Positions 6,574 through 18,441 of a stretch of 64,000 nucleotides of DNA are shown here, piece by piece. This stretch comes from an uncultured Alphaproteobacteria bacterium. GTDB taxonomy: Bacteria; Pseudomonadota; Alphaproteobacteria; Rhizobiales; Rhodomicrobiaceae. Every line of letters begins with the position of its first letter. Within the stretch, counting starts at the first letter, position 1. Location of the stretch: positions 8,026-72,025 of the forward strand of contig CAVVJJ010000005.1 of assembly GCA_963748525.1 (NCBI GenBank), given 5' to 3'. A model generated the notes under the pieces. That model saw nothing but the letters and a program-made list of their open reading frames with translations. It made no database searches and had not been told where the DNA came from. Position numbers and translations under genes: made by a program.

Positions 6574-6921
6574 TCACTTGTCCTTCGACTTCTGCGCCTC
6601 GCGGGCCAGCCGCGTGAGTTCATCCGCCGTCAGGCCCTTGGTTGTCCGCAGTAGCGCCGCGACCTCGACCGGATTGCGCTTGATGATGTCCGAAAGATCA
6701 GTGGCGACCTTGCCCGCCCGTGCCAGAAGCTCATCGACGTCGCAGCCGATCACCCCGGCAATCAACCGAACCTTGTCCTCGGCGGGCGGCGGAAACTCGT
6801 CGCGCTCGACCTTGGAAACATAGGTCGGGCTCACGCCGATCATTTTCGCCATTTCGCGCAAGCCGATCTCCTTTTCTTCACGCCGCGCCCGGATGAACGC
6901 GCCAAACTTCTCCCCTGACAT
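6574..6921 (-). CDS. XRE-family helix-turn-helix regulator (ImmR-like)
   Basis: Reads MSGEKFGAFIRARREEKEIGLREMAKMIGVSPTYVSKVERDE. ATG at 6921. Confidence 0.8.
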   Translation of the reverse strand: MSGEKFGAFIRARREEKEIGLREMAKMIGVSPTYVSKVERDEFPPPAEDKVRLIAGVIGCDVDELLARAGKVATDLSDIIKRNPVEVAALLRTTKGLTADELTRLAREAQKSKDK

Positions 6922-7548
6922 GCTGGTTTCTCCCGTTACCTGTTTATGAGGCACTCTACACTCAATTCGCTCGTCGCCGTCAACTGATATCTAAACACTC
7001 TTAAGCGAGGCGGTTATGCCGCAAGGCCAAACTCGCGAACATCTTCCAGAATGCGCCGGAAATCAGCGCTTGGCGCGAGGCACATGGTTCGATATCGAGT
7101 GACGAAGGGGAGCCACTCCGCCCTGGAGGCAGTTTTTCCGGGCGACCTGTCACCGCCCCTCACCTCATGTTTTTCAGCGGGCGTCACAGGCTATGCCACG
7201 CGGTCGCTTGCCGTCCCGCCCCTCTGACGGTATTGGCGACGGTATTAGAGGGACGTTTCATGTTGCTGAGGCGTACGCCTGCTCGAACCCCGCGAACGGC
7301 CTATAAGTGACCGGCGGCAGAGGTCTATATCTCTATGCGGCGCCGCAAGGATGGCGCCTTTGGCGCTTCAATTGCCGCCGCAGGGGCGCGTCGTGGAATA
7401 GGTCCGACGGCGACCAGCCGTCTCTCGACTTCACATTCAGCAGTGCAATCCCCTGACCGAAGTCCTTGCAATGCCGTTGCGTTTCTTTTGCATCGCGAAA
7501 AGTAGCCGGAACGGGTCATCTGTGAGCCTCCCGCCTCTTATGCGTTTC

Positions 7549-7654: not shown

Positions 7655-9163
7655 CTATGAGAAGCAGATGAGAGCCTTCGGCGCGGTGTTACAGGCCCCG
7701 GCGAGCAGCGATTTTGCCTTTTCCTGGCTCCATACTCGCATCACTTGAAGCAACTTTGACACGCCGAGGATATTCATGGCGCGCTTCATGTTGTAGGACA
7801 GGACGTGGAGAGACATCTCTGTCCTGACATTGCCCAGCCTTTTCATCAGGAAGTGCGCCGAACCCATCCAGAACTTAAGGGTTCCGAACGGATGTTCCGC
7901 GGTGCTGCGCCGTTCGGTCATCGCGTCCGGCCGCCGGTCCAGCCGGTCTTGGGCGGCCTCCAGAACGGCTTCATGCTCCCAGCGCTTGATGCGGCGCTCC
8001 CTGCCTGTGGTGCATTTTCCTTTCAGCGGACAGGTTAAGCAGGCCGTCGCCCAGTAGCTCCGCAAGACTTTGCCGTCTTCTTCGTTGGTGTAACGATAGG
8101 TCAAGCGCTGGCCGGCGGGGCAAAGATAGACATCCTCGTCCGCTTTGTAGACGAAGTCCTGCTTGCCGAAACGCCCCTCGGCCTTAGACCCCGAGGTTGA
8201 AAATCTGGGCACATACGCCGTCGCGCCGGCTTGCCCGCAGGCAAGAATTTCCTTGCCGTCGTAGTAACCGCGATCGGCGAGGGCCTCGATGGCTTCGGCG
8301 CCAAGGGCCTCCTTGGCCTGCCCGGCCATGCTGGAGAGTTGGTGACGGTCATTGACAGCGTTGGTGACTTCGTGAGCGACGATGAGGTGATGCTCCGTCT
8401 CGACGGCGCATTGCACGTTGTAGCCGACGGTCCCCGTCGCCTTGCCTGTCCCTTGCATCGAGCGCGCGTCGGGATCGGTGAGCGAAATCTGTGTGTCCTT
8501 GGCGCTCGCAAGCTGCGCCTCGATCCCTTTCACGCGCTCGATTTCCTGCTTCAGCCTGTCGATTTTGCCCTTGAGCCGCGCGCGCTTGATTTCGGGCGTC
8601 GAGGGCTGGCGGTCGGCGGTTTCAAGCTCAGACAAATAGCGCTCGATGCTCGCCTCGATCTGCTCCAGCCGCTTGGCCGCCTTGGCTTGCGTGAAATTCC
8701 GGTCGCGCGAGTTGACTGCCTTGAACTTGCTTCCGTCGATGGCGACCGTTGTGGCCGTGAGCAGGCCTGCCCGCCCGCAGACCACGATGAACTCGCGACA
8801 GACTTTGCGGATGGCCGGGCCATTATCCTTGCGGAAATCGGCGATGGTCTTGAAGTCCGGCGCCAGGCAGCCCGTCAGCCACATCGCCTCGACGTTGCGC
8901 TGGCATTCCCGCTCAAGCCGGCGGCTGGACTGAACGCGGTTGAGGTATCCGTAGACGTAGAGCTTCAGCATCACCGCCGGATCGTAAGCGGGCCTTCCCA
9001 TCAGCTTCGGATGAACGCGCCAGAAGCCCAGCTGGCCGAGATCAAGCTGATCCACGAAGAAATCGACCACCCGAACAGGATTATCCTCGGCGACATAGTC
9101 TTCCAGCTGCGCCGGAAACATCGTTCCCTGAGTGCGATCCGCCCCGCTCACAAAGCTCGTCAT
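7655..9163 (-). CDS. IS1182-family DDE transposase
   Basis: Reads MTSFVSGADRTQGTMFPAQLEDYVAEDNPVRVVDFFVDQLDLGQLGF...; the Cys-rich CPAGQRL...CLTCPLKGKCT segment is typical of the family. Confidence 0.85.
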   Translation of the reverse strand: MTSFVSGADRTQGTMFPAQLEDYVAEDNPVRVVDFFVDQLDLGQLGFWRVHPKLMGRPAYDPAVMLKLYVYGYLNRVQSSRRLERECQRNVEAMWLTGCLAPDFKTIADFRKDNGPAIRKVCREFIVVCGRAGLLTATTVAIDGSKFKAVNSRDRNFTQAKAAKRLEQIEASIERYLSELETADRQPSTPEIKRARLKGKIDRLKQEIERVKGIEAQLASAKDTQISLTDPDARSMQGTGKATGTVGYNVQCAVETEHHLIVAHEVTNAVNDRHQLSSMAGQAKEALGAEAIEALADRGYYDGKEILACGQAGATAYVPRFSTSGSKAEGRFGKQDFVYKADEDVYLCPAGQRLTYRYTNEEDGKVLRSYWATACLTCPLKGKCTTGRERRIKRWEHEAVLEAAQDRLDRRPDAMTERRSTAEHPFGTLKFWMGSAHFLMKRLGNVRTEMSLHVLSYNMKRAMNILGVSKLLQVMRVWSQEKAKSLLAGACNTAPKALICFS

Positions 9164-9222
9164 CAGTTCTCCTCGCCACTTTGGCGAGGAGAAGTTTAGG
9201 CGCAATCGCTATTCTGAAGCTG

Positions 9223-9525: not shown

Positions 9526-10207
9526 ATGCCAAAGCTGCCTTCTGCTTCAGCCAAGCCTGCTTTGTACCGTCTGGTCGAGCTGTTTCACGAAGCCTTTCCC
9601 AGCCGCCGCTGGTGTCCGTTTTTTCAAGATCTGGCGAAATTTGCGAAACGCAAACTGTCTGTTGCTGATCGGGACATTATTATCAAGGCGTCCCTAAGAC
9701 TTCTTGCAAGAAAGCCCTATGTGGAAACGAAGGAAGAATACCGCGAGCGCCTAAAATTGGATGGTAAAGACAGAACAGAACTGGTCAAACGCCTCAAGAG
9801 TATCCGCTCATCCTCCAAAACCATTGCTAGAGATATAGAGTTTATCGTAAGCTGTGACGCTTGGATCATCGAAAAAATATTCATTTCTTCTTGATTTTTA
9901 CAAGCCGTTTGATGCTTCTGCTTCTATCGCGCCGGTAGATCAAGTGATAGCGCGTATTCAAAGTGCATCGAAAAGCGCCGTCGCTCAGTGCCCGAAGAAG
10001 GGGAATCAGGGCCCGAAGCCTGATACGGCAATCAGATTTTTTATCGCAGAACTCTCGCAAATTTTCGAGAATAAGATAACCTCTGGTTACAATGAAAAAG
10101 AGGTGCGGCGCGTTTCTTCCTTTATTGATTTCGTGAAAGCCATTCTCCTTGCGCTTCCCGAGAATGCGATAATGGGGTGGCAGGGCATTTTCTCGACGGA
10201 GGTATAG
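9526..10207 (+). pseudogene. Hypothetical gene in an AT-rich block, split into two ORFs (9526..9894 and 9854..10207) at an A6 tract
   Basis: Removing one A from the A6 run at 9872..9877 joins ...CDAWIIEK to YSFLLDFYKPFDASAS... in one frame of about 227 codons. Confidence 0.5.
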
Positions 10208-10351: not shown

Positions 10352-10588
10352 TTATTCCGTACCTGGCCTGCACATGGCCGAAAATTCTGTACGGAGTAAC
10401 CCATGAAAGCTGCTGGCCTCCGCATTCCGGAAAAGGCGCGTCGTGGCGACAATGGCAAAGCCTGCCTCGATCAGCACCTCAAACCGGGTGGAGGCGAGCG
10501 GCAGCGGCTGCCGGCCGCCGCGGACAAACGCGCCGGCGACGAAGGCGTGTAACGGATCAATCATGCTCTGCGGCGTCATCCGGGGCAC
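10352..10588 (-). pseudogene. 5' remnant of a VIT-domain (vault inter-alpha-trypsin / vWA-type) gene
   Basis: MTPQSMIDPLHAFVAGAFVRGGRQPLPLASTRFEVLIEAGFAIVATTRLFRNAE resembles a VIT-domain N-terminus. The similarity is lost after about residue 56, where base composition changes. Confidence 0.4.
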
Positions 10589-10931
10589 GGCTCCCCTCCC
10601 TCAGCAAATCGTTCAACAGTTCGGCGACGCGTGTGGCGAGCGGTTCGACGCGAACGCCGCTGCCAATCAGCGCCGGATCGACGACAAGCGTGACGCCCGG
10701 CGCGACGGGAAAGGGCGCGCCTTCCCCGGTTTCCAGGAGCAACTTGATCGCCGCCGGCGGAAACCCAAGCTCCCGCAAAGCGTTGTACCGGCGGATGGCC
10801 GCGACATGATCGTCGCCGTAGGTCGCGCGAGCGCGGCCCCCACGTGGCGAGGGAATGAACCCTTCGGCGATCAAATAGCGGATTTGACGCTCCGGTACGC
10901 CAGTGACAGCGGTAAGCTCGTGAATGTTCAC
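10557..10931 (-). CDS. MerR-family HTH transcriptional regulator
   Basis: VNIHELTAVTGVPERQIRYLIAEGFIP...AAIRRYNALRELGFPPAAIKLLL. The GTG start at 10931 is preceded by GAAAGGAGG. Confidence 0.7.
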   Translation of the reverse strand: MNIHELTAVTGVPERQIRYLIAEGFIPSPRGGRARATYGDDHVAAIRRYNALRELGFPPAAIKLLLETGEGAPFPVAPGVTLVVDPALIGSGVRVEPLATRVAELLNDLLREGSRAPDDAAEHD

Positions 10932-10940
10932 GCCGCCTCC

Positions 10941-10963
10941 TTTCGACAATATTCTTGTCGAAA
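10941..10963. promoter_or_regulatory. Palindromic candidate operator TTTCGACAA-N5-TTGTCGAAA upstream of the MerR gene
   Basis: Read directly. A further half-site, tttgtcgaagg, lies at about 10994..11004. Confidence 0.45.
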
Positions 10964-11293
10964 CGGATGGGGCGGTCAAGTCTTTTACAAATCATTTGTC
11001 GAAGGGAGTGAAGCGCGGGAGCTTGACGGCTTCTTGGCGGAAAAGAAAGGCTGCTGAAAACACAACGGCGTGCCGGGATCGACATTTCGCGTTCCCCCCG
11101 CCCCCGATGCCGCCTAAGCCGAAATGGAGCGTTGGCACACATTTCTCGCCTTACGTCGCAATTTGAGGGAAGCAGAACGCGAGTTCGCCACAGCATGAAC
11201 CGGGTTTCGGCACGGCTCAATACGCCGTCAGCGAAGGGGAAGCCGGGGGCGCACAGCTTATGGCAGGCTTAACTGAAGAAAGGAATGCCGCAA

Positions 11294-11390
11294 ATCACGC
11301 TAGATGTCGGCTGGAAGCCGGTCAAGACTTTCGAGGAAGGCCTCGCGGAGACTGTGACCGGGTGTATTCACAACCGCGCTTGGGCATTCT
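11294..11390 (+). pseudogene. rfbB: 3'-terminal remnant of dTDP-glucose 4,6-dehydratase
   Basis: ITLDVGWKPVKTFEEGLAETVTGCIHNRAW matches the conserved RfbB C-terminus (LGWKP..TFE.G..KTV.WY..N..W). There is no upstream continuation in any frame. Confidence 0.5.
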
Positions 11391-11589
11391 CGAACGCGGT
11401 TACCAAGGCCGAACGGCTAGGCCATGCGGGTGCGGACCTTGAAAACGCGACAGTTTATGACCCGGATCAAAGCGGCCGATGACGGAATGTGGGAACAGGC
11501 TATGAAAGCGAGGCAACAGCCACGAATGCAGATTTGACGAATGCAACTGGTTTGTCACCGTCACGCTTTCGGGTTGTGGGAGCAGGGCT

Positions 11590-11931
11590 ATGAGGTTTCT
11601 TTCTAGCCTGTTGGCGTTTGTATTAACGATTTTTCTTTCGAATGCTTTATATACGTACTTCGCAATGAACTTCACAATAACGATGCGAGACTTACTGCTG
11701 GGTGTTCAGAGCATTCGCGATCAGTTGGGCCACCTCGTTTCATCTGAAAAGTTCACCGTTTGGGTAGATATTTTTTTGGAGCCGAACCTAATTGTTTTCG
11801 TGGGCGTCAATATTTTGACCTGGTTTTTTCTCGCCATCGTTTTCTCAGCCTTTTGGAGAGGACCGCAACGTCCATCCGCTGCCGTGGCATCCGCAGCCGC
11901 AATGAGGCTGCCATTCGGGCGTTGGGGCTGA
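11590..11931 (+). CDS. Small membrane protein with two hydrophobic segments
   Basis: 113 aa. Reads FLSSLLAFVLTIFLSNALYTYF and NLIVFVGVNILTWFFLAIVFSAFW. AT-rich; 48 bp upstream of the next gene. Confidence 0.5.
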   Translation: MRFLSSLLAFVLTIFLSNALYTYFAMNFTITMRDLLLGVQSIRDQLGHLVSSEKFTVWVDIFLEPNLIVFVGVNILTWFFLAIVFSAFWRGPQRPSAAVASAAAMRLPFGRWG

Positions 11932-11979
11932 AGGGATGAAGCTTCCCAAAGAGTTTCCGCTCACGTCCCGAGCAACAAA

Positions 11980-12525
11980 GTGAATGGCGGTGACAAGGGG
12001 CATACTGTACAGCAACTCGATGTACGCGCACTTCTGGATGTATGGTATCGTAGGGCGCGCGAGGCGCAATTCGCCCACTATCGAGCCGCTAAGCGTTTCT
12101 CACAGCTCAACGATGGTCTTGGCATTCTGGCTGCCCTTATGACGGCCGGGCTCGGCCTTCAGCTTGTGCAGGTTCTTAATGTCGGGTCGTGGCTGAATTT
12201 GCGCGGCGACACTTTGGATTTAGCATTGGGCGTTTCGGGGCTCATAGCCGCCGCTTTAACAACGATTCAGACTATCATGCGCTATTCGGAAGCTGCTGAA
12301 AGACATATCAGAGCCGCTGCGCTTTACAGCTCGATTCGAAGGGAAATCGAAGTGGCGAAGACTCTTGCCCCGGACACTATAGAAAGCGATCGCAACGTCA
12401 TAGAATCGATCCGGAGCCGTCTCGATGAAGCCGCCGCCGAGACGCCGGATGTTCCGGCCGCGGTTTTTCGCCGGACCGTCGAGGAACTCGAACGCAAGAG
12501 CGGGCCAGGACCGCATCTTATATGA
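11980..12525 (+). CDS. SLATT-like two-transmembrane protein (predicted membrane effector)
   Basis: Layout: N-terminal helix WYRRAREAQFAHYRAAKRF, TM1 GLGILAALMTAGLGLQLVQVL, TM2 LALGVSGLIAAALTTIQTIM, then RYSEAAERHIRAAALYSSIRREIE. GTG start. Confidence 0.5.
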   Translation: MNGGDKGHTVQQLDVRALLDVWYRRAREAQFAHYRAAKRFSQLNDGLGILAALMTAGLGLQLVQVLNVGSWLNLRGDTLDLALGVSGLIAAALTTIQTIMRYSEAAERHIRAAALYSSIRREIEVAKTLAPDTIESDRNVIESIRSRLDEAAAETPDVPAAVFRRTVEELERKSGPGPHLI

Positions 12526-12832
12526 GAACCGTTCGCGCGAGGAGGTGGTCTGCTACCTCCCGGTTAAGGCATTGCTAGTATTAGGTGAAATGAGGCCTTG
12601 CGTTTTGCCGATTCCGGGGCTATGTAACTGGCTTCCAATTTGTCGGTCTGGTGTGGTTTGGCCACATACCGGGACAGCGATCCCAAGAAAAAAACAGTTC
12701 ATCTTGAGTAGCGCCCCTTGACGGATAAGCACAAATCGGAACCTAGTTCGGCGGAGGTGCTGCGTCGAACGTTTAGCTTCAGACAACGGGAAAAAAGATG
12801 CGCGGACCGATCATACTTCCAACTTCCCTTTT

Positions 12833-14275
12833 TTAAAGTAGGGCGCTGCCGAACTCGCTTTTCAAAAGCTTGGAATAGCCCATTCGCTCGTGGAGCTTTT
12901 GAAAAGCGACGCCAGCTTTGTCTTCGGCAGAACTATCGTAAGCGTTTCTGCACTTCATAATACCAGCCTCTATCTCCTCTTCCGATTGCGCAAAAGCGAT
13001 AAGGAATGCGCCGAGCGTGTCTTGAACCGCGCGGAAGTTTTCGTGTGCGCTGTCAAGAAAATCGAGGTTGAGTTCGCACCGCAATCTTTCGCACTCCGCC
13101 AGAAACTGCGACGTTTCGGTTTGCATCGCGCCGTCGATCAGGTAATTGAGCAGATTGAACTTCAAGTACCAGACCGTGGTATCGTCACCGTCGGGACTCC
13201 CTTGAGACATTCTCAGATAAGTGCGAATAACGGAGATGGCGTTGTCTCTTTCGCCGATCATGTACAGGATGCTCGATTTCCAGAATGCCGCCTCGCTGCC
13301 TGTCTTGCCCTTATCTGCTATCCAATCTTCCATGTACTGAAGAGCGATACGATTGAGATCGTTTGCCTCTCGAATCGACGCAAGAAGCAGCATAAGCTGG
13401 AACGCAGGCTCAATGCCGTTCTGCTGCCGCATGCATTCAATATCGTTTACAATCGTCTTCAGACTGATATCTCTTATCGAACAAATCGAAAATATATTAG
13501 CCAACTCAGTGATCCGTCCATGAAATTCTCTACAGTGTCGAGTGAGATCGGGGTCCGTAAATTCCCTATCGGCAAGCTTATCGAGCGCAGCGGTCCGCGC
13601 CGCGCGACGAAGTTTCTTTTCAAACATCCACTCTTTATTGACCATAAGCCTCAGATTTTCGCTTTGCACCTCCAGCGCTTCTATACTGTCGCCCATGCTT
13701 TGCATCAGCTCCCTAGCGTGGCGGCTCAGAGTGTTGGACGGTCTGTAGATGAAGTCATGCGTTTTGCAACTCCACGCATCGTGCAGGATCGTTTTAACCT
13801 GGACTTCGCATAAAAAGTTTCTTAGATCTAAGCGATTGCATCTTAAAATAAGATGATGAGCATGGTATCCTAATTTATCACGATAAACTTCATCGACAAC
13901 TGAGAAATCGTAGGCTTCGACAGATCGCTTTATCTCGTCGACAACTCTACTAATTTGAGATCTATAATAAACAAGCACACGACACGCAACAATATCGTGA
14001 ACATGGGCTGCTCCCTTATCTTTCCACGCAGCCGGATCTCTTTCTTTAAATTTTACAATTTTAGCTGTTAAGCGGTTTATATCCTTTATTTCTCCGGACT
14101 GACCCGGATAGTCCCTGCGGGAGTAAGCAAAAAAAACTGCTTCTGTACTCCATCGAAGCGGAACAATACGTTCTTGAAGATAGGCTTTTACCAGTTTCAC
14201 GAGGCGTAAATAATGCGCTTGATTGTCAAATAGAAATTTCTGCGTTTCCGCAAGCACTCTATCAAATTGAGTCAT
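12833..14275 (-). CDS. RelA/SpoT-fold (RSH synthetase-like) nucleotidyltransferase fused to a helical C-terminal domain of about 270 aa
   Basis: Motifs HDIVACRVLVYY (DxxGxR-like), GYHAHHLIL (GYxSxH-like) and CEVQVKTILHDAWSCKTHDFIYRP (EIQIRT..WA..H..YK-like). There is no HD hydrolase domain. The C-terminal sequence is TPR-like and helical. AT-rich. Confidence 0.7.
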   Translation of the reverse strand: MTQFDRVLAETQKFLFDNQAHYLRLVKLVKAYLQERIVPLRWSTEAVFFAYSRRDYPGQSGEIKDINRLTAKIVKFKERDPAAWKDKGAAHVHDIVACRVLVYYRSQISRVVDEIKRSVEAYDFSVVDEVYRDKLGYHAHHLILRCNRLDLRNFLCEVQVKTILHDAWSCKTHDFIYRPSNTLSRHARELMQSMGDSIEALEVQSENLRLMVNKEWMFEKKLRRAARTAALDKLADREFTDPDLTRHCREFHGRITELANIFSICSIRDISLKTIVNDIECMRQQNGIEPAFQLMLLLASIREANDLNRIALQYMEDWIADKGKTGSEAAFWKSSILYMIGERDNAISVIRTYLRMSQGSPDGDDTTVWYLKFNLLNYLIDGAMQTETSQFLAECERLRCELNLDFLDSAHENFRAVQDTLGAFLIAFAQSEEEIEAGIMKCRNAYDSSAEDKAGVAFQKLHERMGYSKLLKSEFGSALL

Positions 14276-14421
14276 ATATCTTTTTTACATCGTTCGGCGA
14301 TGCAATCCCCCAGTCGAAATTAGTACACAAAGCCAGAAGCGAGCCTTCGGATCAGAGTTGCCGAGGGTGGCTTTTTAAGCATCTTGATATGCCATGGGAT
14401 GCAACCCAATAGCAATCAAAC

Positions 14422-14979
14422 TTGAGATTGCGTGAGCGCGACATTTTTTTGTTACGTCCGAGCGCACCCTTTCCCACTCCCGCCGCCCTTGCAGAGAGAG
14501 GCTATAGAATGTATGCCGCAAATCCAGCCTTCCAGCACACCCAGGTCTATGGAAGGCGTTATCGGTTTGAAGACATCCTGGCCGCGTTCTTCGAGCAGGT
14601 GATTTCGCGCGCCCGGAGGTCTGCGTCTTTACCACGCCGGCTTGATTGGAAGGCCGGTAAAATTTGCTGGCCTTAGTCCGGACGCGGCGCTCGCGCAACG
14701 GCGCTACGAGGCGGCGTTCAAGCGCTTCGGCTTTGATGAAATCCATCATGTTATGGAGCCCATAGCCGCCGCCTATTTTTACGCACATAAACAGACGCAG
14801 GCCTCCACCGTTTTGGTTGGCGATTTCGGCGAAGGCCGGGATTCCGGCGGACGCCATCGACCGGGTTTTCCTCACCGGGCGGCACATCCTTCGTACCGGC
14901 CATCAGAAGAATTTTCGCACAGCGTTTCGGCGCGGAGAAAGTAAACTCGGGCGATAAGTCCGAGCCGCTTTATAAGCGC
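14422..14979 (+). pseudogene. Hsp70-like (YegD-type actin-fold ATPase) gene remnant with frameshifts and a large internal deletion
   Basis: The pieces RYRFEDILAAFFEQV, LIGRPVKFAGLSPDAALAQRRYEAAFKRFGFDEIHHVMEPIAAAYFY, VLVGDFG, ADAIDRVFLTG and GTSFVPAIRRIFAQRFGAEKV lie in different frames. Confidence 0.6.
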
Positions 14980-17346
14980 GTGTTTCAGGCCCGCGAGCGG
15001 GTGTTGGGCCCCGAGAATCCGAACACGCTTCAAATCCTCACCAATCTGGCGAATATCTATCGGGAGCAGGGCCGCTACGCGGACGCAGAGCCGCTATACA
15101 AGCGCGCTCTTCAGGGCTTTGAGAGGGTAAAGGGCCCCGAGGACCCCCTAACTCTGGGCAGCCTTAACAATCTCGCGTTGCTCTATCGTGAACAGGGCCG
15201 CTACGCGGATGCCGAGCCGCTTTATAAACGTGCGATCGAGGCCAGCGAGCGCGTGCTTGGAAAGGAGCATCCCGACACGCTCGGGAGCCGCAGCAACCTG
15301 GCTGTGCTCTATCAAGACCAGGGCCGCTATGCGGAGGCAGAGCCCCTTTATAAGCGCGTGCTCGAGGTCCAGCAGCGGGTGCTCGGCAAGGCGCATCCCT
15401 ATACGCTTGGCAGTCTCTACAATCTGGCATGGCTTGATTTCCAACTGGGCGACTGGGCAGGCGCCGCCCGATTGTGGCGGCGTAGCGCTGCCGCGATCGC
15501 TGAGCGGGAGCAGCGCAGCGCGCAGGATTCCGGGCAAGCCCTGACCGGCGAAAAGAAAAGCGAGGCGGATCGCGCGAGCAATCACTTTCTGGGTCTCATA
15601 AAGGCGGTGAGTCGCCTCGCGAGCGAAGGCCAGGCGCCCGGCGCACCCGCGGCGCGCGAGACGTTCGAGATAGCGCAATGGGCTGCCGGCTCCGAGGCGG
15701 CAAAATCGCTGGCGCAAATGGCGGCGCGTGGCGCCTCGCGGGATAAGGCGCTCGCTGTGCTGGCGCGCGAGCGCCAGGATCTCGTCGCGGAATGGCAGAA
15801 GCGCGACGGCTTGCGCAACGAATGGCTCGCCAAGACGCCGGATAAACGCAACGCCCAAGGCGAGGCCGAGAACACGGCCCGGCTTACCTCGATCGAGGCG
15901 CGCATCGGGGAGATTGACGGCATCCTGAAGGACAAATTCCCCGATTACGCCTCCCTCGCCAGTCCCGCGCCAATCAGCGTCGAGGATGCGCAGGCTCAGC
16001 TTCTTCCCAACGAGGCGCTGGTGCTTTTCCTCGATACACGGGAATGGAAGCCCACGCCGGAGGAGACCTTTATCTGGGTCGTGACCAAGACCGATATGCG
16101 CTGGGAGCGTTCCGATTTGGGCACGAAGGCCCTCTCCCGCGAAGTGCAGGCGCTGCGCTGCGGCCTCGACGACGCGGCGTGGGACGACCAGCCCTGTGCG
16201 GAACTTGCCGGCCAAAATTACACATACAAAGACCGGAATGACGGCAAGGCGCCGCCCTTCGATTTGGCCCGCGCCCATAAGCTCTACGAAGCGCTGTTTG
16301 GCCAGGTGGAGGATTTAATCAAGGGTAAAAGCCTCCTTATCGTGCCATCCGGACCGCTCACGCAATTGCCGTTCCAGGTGCTGTTGACGGCGGCGTCTCA
16401 AAGCGGCGATCACCGTTCCGCCCCTTGGCTCATCCGCGAGCATGCGCTCACCGTGCTGCCAGCCGTTTCCTCGCTGAAGGCGCTGCGGCGCGTCGCGCGG
16501 CCCAGCGCGGCGACGCGCGCGATGATTGGCTTCGGCAACCCGCTCCTCGACGGCGACCAGAGCGACAAGCAGCTCGGCGCCTATTTCAAGAAGCGCGCCC
16601 AGCTCGCCCGCGACAAACAGCGTTGCCCCGAGACGCCTTGGCAGCGCTTCGCCGCTCTCGTTGGAATAAGACGCGGGGTGGCGCAGGTTCAAACGCGCGG
16701 CGAACTCGCCGACGCCGATTTCCTGCGTATGCAGGCGCCGCTGCCGGAGACCGCTGATGAACTTTGCGCCGTCGCCCGCGACGTGAACGCCGATCTGGCC
16801 GAAATCCGGCTCGGCGCCCGCGCCACCGAGCGCGAAGTGAAGCGCCTGAGCGAGACGGGCGAACTCGCTCGCTATCGCATCGTTCATTTCGCCACCCATG
16901 GCGCGCTGGCGGGGCAAGTTACGGGCAATGCCGAGCCGGGCCTGCTGTTGACGCCCCCCGAAAGCCCGAGCGAGGGTGACGATGGCTATCTCACCGCGTC
17001 CGAAATCGCCGGCCTGAAGCTCGACGCCGACTGGGTGATCCTGTCGGCCTGCAACACGGCCGCCGGCGGCGCAAAAGGCGCCGAGGCGCTATCGGGCCTT
17101 GCGCGCGCCTTCATCTATGCGCAGGCGCGCGCGCTCCTTGTCTCGCATTGGGAGGTGAATTCGGACGCCACCGTCAAGCTCATAACCGGCGCCATACGCC
17201 GGCTTGCGGCGGACAAGGCCATGGGCCGCGCGGAGGCGATGCGCCAATCCATGCTCGCGCTTATCGACGGCGGCGCGCACGAAGAGACGCATCCCGCCTT
17301 TTGGGCGCCGTTCGTGCTCGTCGGCGAGGGTGGAGCCGGGAGATAG
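14980..17346 (+). CDS. TPR-repeat + CHAT-domain caspase-like protease, apparently 5'-truncated
   Basis: Repeated units read LG.EHPDTL.S..NLA.LY..QGRYA.AEPLYKRAL. The CHAT His/Cys dyad context is RIVHFATHG ... DWVILSACNTAAGG. The reading frame is open upstream into the Hsp70-like remnant, and the only start is a GTG without an SD. Confidence 0.75.
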   Translation: MFQARERVLGPENPNTLQILTNLANIYREQGRYADAEPLYKRALQGFERVKGPEDPLTLGSLNNLALLYREQGRYADAEPLYKRAIEASERVLGKEHPDTLGSRSNLAVLYQDQGRYAEAEPLYKRVLEVQQRVLGKAHPYTLGSLYNLAWLDFQLGDWAGAARLWRRSAAAIAEREQRSAQDSGQALTGEKKSEADRASNHFLGLIKAVSRLASEGQAPGAPAARETFEIAQWAAGSEAAKSLAQMAARGASRDKALAVLARERQDLVAEWQKRDGLRNEWLAKTPDKRNAQGEAENTARLTSIEARIGEIDGILKDKFPDYASLASPAPISVEDAQAQLLPNEALVLFLDTREWKPTPEETFIWVVTKTDMRWERSDLGTKALSREVQALRCGLDDAAWDDQPCAELAGQNYTYKDRNDGKAPPFDLARAHKLYEALFGQVEDLIKGKSLLIVPSGPLTQLPFQVLLTAASQSGDHRSAPWLIREHALTVLPAVSSLKALRRVARPSAATRAMIGFGNPLLDGDQSDKQLGAYFKKRAQLARDKQRCPETPWQRFAALVGIRRGVAQVQTRGELADADFLRMQAPLPETADELCAVARDVNADLAEIRLGARATEREVKRLSETGELARYRIVHFATHGALAGQVTGNAEPGLLLTPPESPSEGDDGYLTASEIAGLKLDADWVILSACNTAAGGAKGAEALSGLARAFIYAQARALLVSHWEVNSDATVKLITGAIRRLAADKAMGRAEAMRQSMLALIDGGAHEETHPAFWAPFVLVGEGGAGR

Positions 17347-17671: not shown

Positions 17672-18067
17672 TCACGGTGCGCTCTCAAGCGCATCTGTGA
17701 CGGCCTTGGGATTTCGCGCGATCACCTTAAGATAGGCTCGCGCGCAGGTGTCGGGTTCGCTCTTGCCTTGTTCCCAATCACTAAGCGTGCCGAGAGGGAT
17801 ATGGAAGTGAGCGGCAAACTCCTCCTGAGTGAGCCCCAAAGCCCGTCGCATCACTCTCACCTGAGGGATGCGCCGCAGCTTCTTCTCGCGTTCCGGCGTG
17901 CGCGGCTTGTTGTCGGGATCGGAAAGGGCAGCGGCTTCTATGACCTCGTCACTTTGCTTAGGGAGCGGTCCAGGATCTGGCAGCGCTTTTTCCCGGCCAT
18001 CGGCAAGTTCCCGGACAAGCTTCCCGTCAGTCCTCCTGCGCCGCACGATAATAGTTTCGTCTTTCAT
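17672..18067 (-). CDS. HTH (XRE-like) antitoxin partnered with the BrnT-family toxin
   Basis: Reads MKDETIIV...MRRALGLTQEEFAAHFHIPLGTLSDWEQGKSEPDTCARAYLKVIARNP. The start overlaps the toxin stop (ATGA). Confidence 0.7.
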   Translation of the reverse strand: MKDETIIVRRRRTDGKLVRELADGREKALPDPGPLPKQSDEVIEAAALSDPDNKPRTPEREKKLRRIPQVRVMRRALGLTQEEFAAHFHIPLGTLSDWEQGKSEPDTCARAYLKVIARNPKAVTDALESAP

Positions 18068-18441
18068 AGTCTGTCGCCTCGCGCGCCGAAATAATGCGAA
18101 CACGCTCTTCGCGTTCGGTACACAACCACCAATATGCCGTCCCCAACACGGCCCATTAGCAGGAAGCGGTCTTCCCCGTAGTCTTCGCTCTCATCGAGTT
18201 CGACAAGAGCGAACGGATCCTCGAAGGCGATAACCGCGTGCTCAAACCTTACGCCGTGCTTTTTGAAGTTGGCGGCTGCCTTGGCGCGATCCCACTCGAA
18301 GTCGATTGCTGAGCAAGTGGATATCTGAAAGTGGGGGTGGAGCGGAAACCTCCATTCCGAGCAGAACTCACCCTTGGGGCCATCAACGACCCTTGGACTT
18401 TTGAAATTCGATAGCCCGGATATCTCACCAAGATCGCTCAA
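18064..18441 (-). CDS. brnT: BrnT-family toxin. The C-terminus is probably frameshifted and the N-terminal start is uncertain.
   Basis: Reads FEWDRAKAAANFKKHGVRFEHAVIAFEDPFALVELDESEDYGEDRFLLMGRVGDGILVVV. The family-typical tail TEREERVRIISAREATDYERR is in another frame that would end at 18027. Confidence 0.65.
   Translation of the reverse strand: MSDLGEISGLSNFKSPRVVDGPKGEFCSEWRFPLHPHFQISTCSAIDFEWDRAKAAANFKKHGVRFEHAVIAFEDPFALVELDESEDYGEDRFLLMGRVGDGILVVVYRTRRACSHYFGARGDRL

Follow-up and report, generated by a model that had tools for sequence, protein, structure and literature searches.

Organization of the locus

The DNA analysed here is a stretch of 64,000 nucleotides (the window) from contig CAVVJJ010000005.1 of an uncultured alphaproteobacterium of the Rhodomicrobiaceae, and the gene under study encodes a RelA/SpoT homologue (RSH) of the type in which a small alarmone synthetase (SAS) domain is joined to TPR repeats (SAS-TPR). 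The gene lies at 12833..14275 on the minus strand as an intact open reading frame (ORF) of 480 residues with an ATG start. Facing it on the plus strand are two genes for proteins with two transmembrane segments (2TM): a small one of 113 residues (11590..11931) and, directly downstream, co-oriented and separated by a 48-bp gap, one of 181 residues with a SLATT_4 domain (11980..12525). The SLATT and RSH genes are convergent, and their stop codons bound an intergenic spacer of 307 bp (12526..12832). Comparison of the window with three other contigs (L001, L002, and L003) by blastn delimits a conserved low-GC cassette at 11546..14511 that contains the 2TM, SLATT, and RSH genes. The GC content around the RSH gene is 48–53%, against approximately 63% for the window background. 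The best explanation of the locus as a whole is a two-domain synthetase of the SAS-TPR kind that is regulated by its TPR domain and has been mobilised together with a SLATT pair, a reading that we consider probable.

Domain architecture of the RSH protein

A Pfam scan of the 480-residue protein identified RelA_SpoT at residues 63–179 (E 1.6e-9, with a score over the gathering cutoff) and matched no HD, TGS, or ACT domain. This agrees with a preliminary description of the locus, in which the protein was held to contain a synthetase domain only and not to be a housekeeping Rel/SpoT. The best sequence matches in the PDB are the SAS proteins RelP and RelQ, covering residues 89–214. We built an AlphaFold2 (AF2) model from a 126-sequence alignment, which replaced an earlier model from 8 sequences (predicted local distance difference test [pLDDT] of 67) and reached a pLDDT of 94.5 and a predicted template modelling score of 0.84. 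The modelled protein consists of three regions: an alpha/beta SAS fold to residue ~180, a 51-residue helix (185–235), and a helical-hairpin solenoid (242–479).

The catalytic SAS domain (residues 1–184; 13724..14275, minus strand) was delimited by fold and profile matches to RelQ and RelP and by conservation. The long connecting helix (residues 185–235; 13571..13723, minus strand) was assigned from the AF2 secondary structure, and its first part is the counterpart of the C-terminal helix of RelQ and RelP, with RelQ alignments reaching residue ~217. The acidic TPR-like solenoid (residues 242–479; 12839..13552, minus strand) was assigned from pLDDT values above 90 and from TPR profile and Foldseek matches, and in the model it comprises approximately 5–6 helical hairpins and a capping helix. 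The two domains differ in charge: the catalytic domain, with a pI of 9.2 and a net charge of +7, is basic, whereas the TPR domain, with a pI of 4.8 and a net charge of -12, is acidic.

A Foldseek search of the PDB returned RelQ as the top match (5ded; template modelling score 0.75, root mean square deviation 3.7 Å, E 1.5e-6), followed by RelP and an exported Streptomyces SAS. The best 30 fold matches were all RelQ, RelP, or exported SAS, and no toxSAS structure was present among the top 50. The C-terminal part matched the TPRs of KLC1, HAP40, and BtubC, while a fold search of BFVD gave matches to the catalytic domain only. When the family profile was compared with PDB sequences, RelQ and RelP were matched with E values from 7e-23 to 2e-17 and consensus TPR proteins with a best E of 2e-12 (range to 1e-5), followed by CapRelSJ46 (7ztb) with E 1.5e-7 and long RelA with E 1.4. 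The 7ztb alignment spans profile positions 58–163 only. The RelQ allosteric motifs KxKxKxxR, EFVT, and MNFWA were found in 0 of the 126 family members. As modelled, the C-terminus of the RSH protein is a true TPR domain, and the earlier assignment of the rest of the protein to helical repeats was borne out by the all-helical model and the TPR profile match.

These comparisons bear on the reading offered in the preliminary description, that of a CapRel-like single-chain toxin and sensor. In such a protein, the N-terminus would be a toxSAS that arrests growth by pyrophosphorylating tRNA or making a toxic alarmone, and its own C-terminus would hold it off and release it on meeting a phage protein. 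The fused C-terminal protein-binding domain and the opposite charges of the two domains are compatible with this arrangement, but the catalytic domain is far nearer to the non-toxic RelQ and RelP than to CapRelSJ46, toxSAS structures are missing from the top 50 folds, and the TPR C-terminus is unrelated to the C-terminal domain of CapRel.

The region preceding the start codon contains a palindrome, TTGCATC-N7-GATG(T/C)AA (14285..14305, minus strand), 9 nt upstream of the RSH gene. It is invariant in the window, L001, L002, L003, and L066, whose cassettes otherwise differ by 10–26% in DNA, and may represent a candidate operator or a hairpin occluding the ribosome-binding site (RBS). No covariation that would favour one over the other was found across the five cassettes.

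An internal start at Met191/194 that would give a free C-terminal "antitoxin" was considered and rejected, as the ORF is unbroken in L002. The Shine-Dalgarno-like AGGGAG before Met191/194 is not kept in L003 and L060, which also argues against a real internal start. Public gene calls for the family often begin at this internal methionine, which leaves 284–288 residues and no RelA_SpoT annotation (compare 12833–13696 in the window); the database entries P0003 and P0006, with 287–288 residues, and P0008 are examples. Such short public gene calls are evidently a gene-calling artefact that hides the catalytic half of the RSH protein.

Family size and conservation of catalytic residues

Close relatives of the RSH protein are rare. 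A word-indexed search of 5.8 billion clusters recovered 8, a query with the 126-sequence alignment added none, and among 185,579 species genomes a single one, the metagenome-assembled genome (MAG) of an alphaproteobacterium, contains one. The wider family was reached by an exhaustive HMMER search, which gave 3,114 matches, with 149 clusters (50% identity) at E <1e-30. Nearly all of these clusters are 460–510 residues long and align over their full length, a length of approximately 470–490 residues being typical of the family. The one family member annotated in RefSeq, a Rhizobium plasmid homologue, is labelled only "hypothetical protein".

Conservation was analysed in 126 full-length family members with a median identity of 24% to the window protein. 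Seven residues are invariant in these homologues: R53, K64, D94, Y137 (the G-loop tyrosine, following G136), H141, E157, and Q159. They correspond to the ATP-phosphate, Mg2+, G-loop tyrosine, and catalytic Glu/Gln residues of RSH synthetases. A further five residues (K161, W168, H173, Y177, and K178) are kept at 90% or more. The alignment shows the catalytic residues to be under purifying selection across the family, and since they are invariant, the RSH enzyme is almost certainly active; the degenerate active site that the preliminary description had allowed for is not what was found. The lysine in its EVQVKT motif (K161 in ExQxKT) had also been noticed there, and correctly so, since 117 of the 126 members (93%) carry it. 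It had been taken as a hint of an altered substrate. The change from Arg to Lys is conservative and clade-wide, and the lysine is better described as a clade signature, by itself no sign of altered specificity.

Within the family, the C-terminal half of the protein has diverged at the same rate as the catalytic half. A hypervariable sensor domain was considered and rejected on this ground, which is also a further point against a CapRel-like sensor. As far as this could be tested, by profile and Foldseek matches to RelQ and RelP, the protein clusters with the housekeeping SAS proteins, a placement that the preliminary description had itself named as contrary to its toxin proposal.

The SLATT cassette

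The SLATT protein matches SLATT_4 in NCBIfam (E 7e-25; 87.7 bits, where the cutoff is 55) and the CBASS '2TM effector' model in PADLOC (E 6e-10), and its hydrophobic segments span residues 45–68 and 78–100. The 113-residue protein also has two hydrophobic segments and is conserved in L002, L003, L066, and L067, while library scans returned no family match for it. The 307-bp spacer aligns throughout in L002 and not in L003, and no significant excess of terminator signal was found in this SLATT-RSH spacer.

The DNA common to the window and the other contigs by blastn is exactly this trio of approximately 3 kb, with unrelated flanks. The trio was found in at least 8 contigs (the window, L002, L003, L066, L067, and the contigs of P0001, P0004, and P0162), and all eight SLATT relatives with at least 79% identity adjoin an RSH gene of the window lineage. 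These observations show that the RSH gene is linked to the 2TM and SLATT genes in a mobile 3-kb cassette. In the window cassette, the RSH gene has no conserved small ORF of the same orientation beside it. The preliminary description was thus right in seeing no small co-oriented ORF and had overlooked the convergent 2TM and SLATT_4 pair directly downstream.

The linkage has to be weighed against the possibility that the RSH gene encodes an ordinary regulatory SAS, that is, a housekeeping-type accessory (p)ppGpp synthetase, with the SLATT pair hitch-hiking on the same small island. Since transcription is convergent and the association, limited to the RSH clade at approximately 69–86% identity, is phylogenetically shallow, hitch-hiking is a possible alternative, and SLATT_4 genes are found alone elsewhere. 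Against it, in several unrelated contexts the conserved DNA unit starts and stops with the same three genes, and all eight close SLATT relatives keep the RSH neighbour. The atypical GC content and the extreme rarity among species genomes also argue for a mobile accessory module and not for a core regulator.

In the alphaproteobacterial MAG contig L002, the cassette has a degenerate copy of the surE 5'-end on one side and an intact surE gene on the other (6725–7273 and 10933–11697), which suggests an insertion in which the 5'-end of the target was duplicated or replaced. No recombinase gene was found within the L002 island. In the contig of P0004 (JGI 3300075153), the RSH gene is split into parts of 144 and 325 residues and is followed by a tandem 511-residue RelA_SpoT paralogue, then by a convergent SLATT gene (P0160, 85% identity) and an 83-residue ORF, with a VapBC pair and a patatin gene near.

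In the window, the right edge of the cassette meets a truncated YegD-like Hsp70 fragment (14642–14944, plus strand; NCBIfam PRK11678, positions 153–220 of 450), and it appears that the cassette or an adjacent event disrupted a yegD-like gene. The fragment is followed by a gene with a GTG start for a TPR-CHAT (caspase-like) protein (14980–17346, plus strand). Approximately 3.4 kb from the RSH gene lies a type II toxin–antitoxin (TA) pair (17672–18441, minus strand), in which a BrnT-like ribonuclease toxin (PF04365, E 7e-17) is followed downstream by a helix-turn-helix/MqsA-like antitoxin (BrnT/BrnA pair). On the other side, the low-GC region has at its left edge an insertion sequence (IS) element with a DDE transposase (DUF772 and DDE_Tnp_1_6; 7655–9205, minus strand). 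ORFs at 9526–10207 have no family matches, and a MerR-family regulator at 10557–10979 lies outside the conserved cassette unit.

Genomic context of distant family members

At 55 distant family loci, the neighbours are for the most part housekeeping genes, ileS and pmbA/tldD among them, and only approximately 3 of 116 neighbours match defence models in PADLOC. On this count, a defence-island setting was rejected for the family. SLATT was also rejected as a family-wide partner, since searches of the 116 neighbours with phmmer, Pfam, and NCBIfam gave no recurrent SLATT. Neighbours of 448–513 residues, considered as tandem paralogues, proved to be PmbA/TldD, acyl-CoA dehydrogenase, or serine recombinase.

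The sole recurrent partner of the distant members is a gene of 111–153 residues with an invariant DGNST motif, just downstream of the RSH gene. It occurs 62–318 bp 3' of the RSH gene in 18 loci (approximately 12 distinct), about one third of the set, including L007, L008 (7572–7949), L011, L012, L014, L015, L025, L030, L042, L045, L046, and L048, and ileS adjoins 3–4 of these loci. The encoded protein has a weak likeness to ParB_N, Noc, and SbnI (Pfam 0.0026; PDB profile 0.2–0.9). This ParB/Srx-like protein may be a nucleotide-binding partner or regulator.

The wider contexts speak to both of the readings introduced above. For an ordinary regulatory SAS, the housekeeping neighbourhoods (ileS, pmbA/tldD, and others) are what would be expected, as is the P0010 locus, in which the RSH gene stands without SLATT. 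The characterised SAS-TPR enzyme, Tde-SAS of Treponema denticola, is likewise a physiological source of ppGpp (PMC10434055). With the sharp boundaries and rarity of the cassette on the other side, we regard this reading as possible and rather unlikely.

For the CapRel-like toxin, the same housekeeping neighbours and the handful of defence matches are adverse, and Tde-SAS shows no toxicity, also when its TPR domain is removed (PMC10434055). What can be said for it comes from the window itself: the location on a mobile cassette of low GC content, with an IS element and a BrnT/BrnA pair in the surrounding region, a SLATT neighbour that is a defence-type effector, a weak PADLOC match to the candidate PDC-S33 (E 2.4e-5), and the conserved palindrome across the RBS region, which suggests tight expression control. 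Because profile and fold are nearer to RelQ and RelP, the C-terminus is TPR, and the family contexts are housekeeping, the toxin reading is not supported, and we judge it very unlikely. A fused regulatory or inhibitory domain, which formed part of that proposal, is reasonable given the precedent of Tde-SAS, a non-toxic enzyme, whereas its role as a phage sensor found no support.

Proposed function and mechanism

In the favoured reading of a TPR-regulated synthetase mobilised with a SLATT pair, the N-terminal ~180 residues form a RelP/RelQ-like pyrophosphokinase, which would use ATP to pyrophosphorylate a purine nucleotide at its 3'-OH. The fold and the catalytic set were observed, and the acceptor would most probably be GDP or GTP, yielding (p)ppGpp. 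By analogy to Tde-SAS, the TPR solenoid most likely keeps the basic catalytic domain at low activity, and the pairing of a basic catalytic with an acidic C-terminal domain fits an intramolecular brake. The solenoid would also serve as a protein-binding module, whose ligand would tune or release synthesis. The cassette of approximately 3 kb moves horizontally, carrying the RSH gene and a convergent operon of the 2TM protein and the predicted pore-forming SLATT_4 effector. From this context, the cassette probably provides a stress- or infection-triggered growth arrest by alarmone and membrane effector, which is the weakest step of the proposal.

A functional link between RSH and SLATT is plausible, because SLATT proteins are predicted pore effectors under the control of nucleotide-type signals, DRT10 defence requires a SLATT protein, and the GRel RSH lineage in PANGU is sometimes accompanied by SLATT (bioRxiv 10.64898/2026.04.06.716658). 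Such a link could take the form of two-part signalling, in which the RSH enzyme is both sensor and signal source and its nucleotide product, an alarmone or a similar nucleotide pyrophosphorylated at the 3' position, directly opens or closes the SLATT/2TM pore, following the logic of CBASS with RSH in place of a CD-NTase. Several observations fit: the strict co-occurrence of RSH, SLATT, and 2TM genes as one 3-kb unit, found in at least 8 contigs whose flanks are unrelated; the match of SLATT, a predicted nucleotide-responsive pore effector, to CBASS 2TM effector models; and the independent gain of SLATT by GRel toxSAS operons. The RSH and CD-NTase folds also both belong to the Pol-beta nucleotidyltransferase superfamily. 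Against direct signalling, transcription is convergent with no shared operon, the link is confined to one shallow clade while distant family members have no SLATT, SLATT_4 relatives either stand by themselves on plasmids or have an unrelated partner, and the SLATT protein has no recognised nucleotide-binding domain. We therefore treat direct gating as a tentative reading with the odds against it. Its fuller version, an RSH-based analogue of CBASS in which the TPR domain senses an infection or stress cue and frees the synthetase, whose 3'-pyrophosphorylated nucleotide then gates the SLATT/2TM pore as a dedicated second messenger, is doubtful. If true, it would represent the first case of a membrane effector gated by an alarmone and would account for the recurrence of SLATT beside unrelated RSH lineages (the window clade and GRel).

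The reading that we favour, a TPR-regulated synthetase mobilised with a SLATT pair, has itself to be set against a number of contrary observations. The RSH-SLATT link sits in one narrow, recent clade; it is not recurrent in the 55 distant loci and is missing at P0010, a relative with 45% identity. The genes are convergent and not co-transcribed, and co-mobilisation without functional coupling is possible. At 60% identity, a SLATT protein pairs with an unrelated 483-residue protein (L065, 233–2224), so that SLATT appears to swap partners. As to the product, (p)ppGpp, (p)ppApp, and pyrophosphorylated tRNA are all candidates. Finally, the window protein, with 480 residues against 410 in Tde-SAS, has a longer linker helix, approximately 5–6 repeats against 4, and the ExQxKT motif, and the top 150 exhaustive matches are 460–510 residues long, none of treponemal size (409–415 residues).

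The 483-residue gene of L065 lies 19 bp 3' of the SLATT gene and is co-oriented with it. Only a weak REC-like N-terminus is recognisable in its product, which was considered as an RSH and rejected, being unrelated. The SLATT_4 relatives on plasmids stand alone.

Comparison with known systems

The cassette resembles type I CBASS with 2TM/SLATT effectors in that an enzyme of nucleotidyltransferase fold is genetically linked to a SLATT-type 2TM effector. In contrast to CBASS, the enzyme is an RSH pyrophosphokinase and not a CD-NTase (SMODS), and the genes are convergent and not co-transcribed. PANGU type I, which consists of the NAP Pag1A and the GRel toxSAS Pag1B, shares with the window an RSH protein with an acidic C-terminal partner-binding domain and, in some cases, an adjacent SLATT gene, and it is activated by a protein ligand, not by loss of an antitoxin (bioRxiv 10.64898/2026.04.06.716658). 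The window system differs in its RSH family (with a weak core match to PADLOC PDC-S33), in having TPR instead of the DMK domain, and in the convergent orientation of SLATT; no NAP gene (Pag1A-like) is present in the window cassette, which has the 2TM ORF, SLATT, and RSH only.

Among the toxSAS systems, a bicistronic TA module would include a coupled or overlapping small antitoxin gene, and none is conserved in the cassette. CapRelSJ46, like the window protein, combines an RSH synthetase with a regulatory domain at its C-terminus in one polypeptide, and autoinhibition in cis is plausible for the window protein as well. However, their catalytic domains are distant (E 1.5e-7), the C-terminal folds are unrelated, and nothing in the sequence data points to toxicity, tRNA targeting, phage sensing, or a prophage location for the window protein.

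RelQ and RelP (SAS1 and SAS2 of Firmicutes) are the closest solved structures and sequences for residues ~20–217 and have the same catalytic residues. They differ from the window protein in being single-domain tetramers of approximately 210 residues without TPR, and the motifs for allosteric control of RelQ by pppGpp (KxKxKxxR, EFVT, and LAMNFWAT) are missing from the window family.

The DsRel (SAS-TPR) family is defined by a SAS domain with a C-terminal TPR domain, and the window protein resembles it in domain architecture and motifs. Tde-SAS (TDE1711), of 410 residues, is a tetramer that prefers GDP, makes ppGpp over pppGpp and pGpp and ppApp weakly, and is not allosterically stimulated by alarmones (PMC10434055). 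Tde-SAS complements a relA spoT double mutant of E. coli and is not toxic there, and its TPR domain acts as a brake that lowers kcat and raises Km (PMC10434055). In both Tde-SAS and the window protein, a RelP/RelQ-like catalytic domain is followed by a TPR domain at the C-terminus, and the chain ends in an extended helix. Tde-SAS and RelP, like the window protein, do not have the RelQ allosteric motifs, and HD, TGS, and ACT domains are likewise missing from Tde-SAS (PMC10434055). The settings differ, with Tde-SAS being chromosomal and functionally paired with SAH, whereas the window gene lies on a mobile SLATT cassette in which no SAH was seen.

A SAS with a TPR brake is thus an architecture already described, and the protein introduces no new principle. 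New are the sizeable family of full-length proteins, which comprises at least 149 clusters (50% identity) and has an ExQxKT signature and a frequent ParB/Srx-like partner, and the rare mobile cassette in which an alarmone synthetase of SAS-TPR type is joined to a SLATT effector of pore type. Should the link prove functional, it would tie the alarmone-based stringent response to those membrane effectors of anti-phage immunity that are gated by nucleotides and provide a compact three-gene system for learning what activates SLATT proteins.

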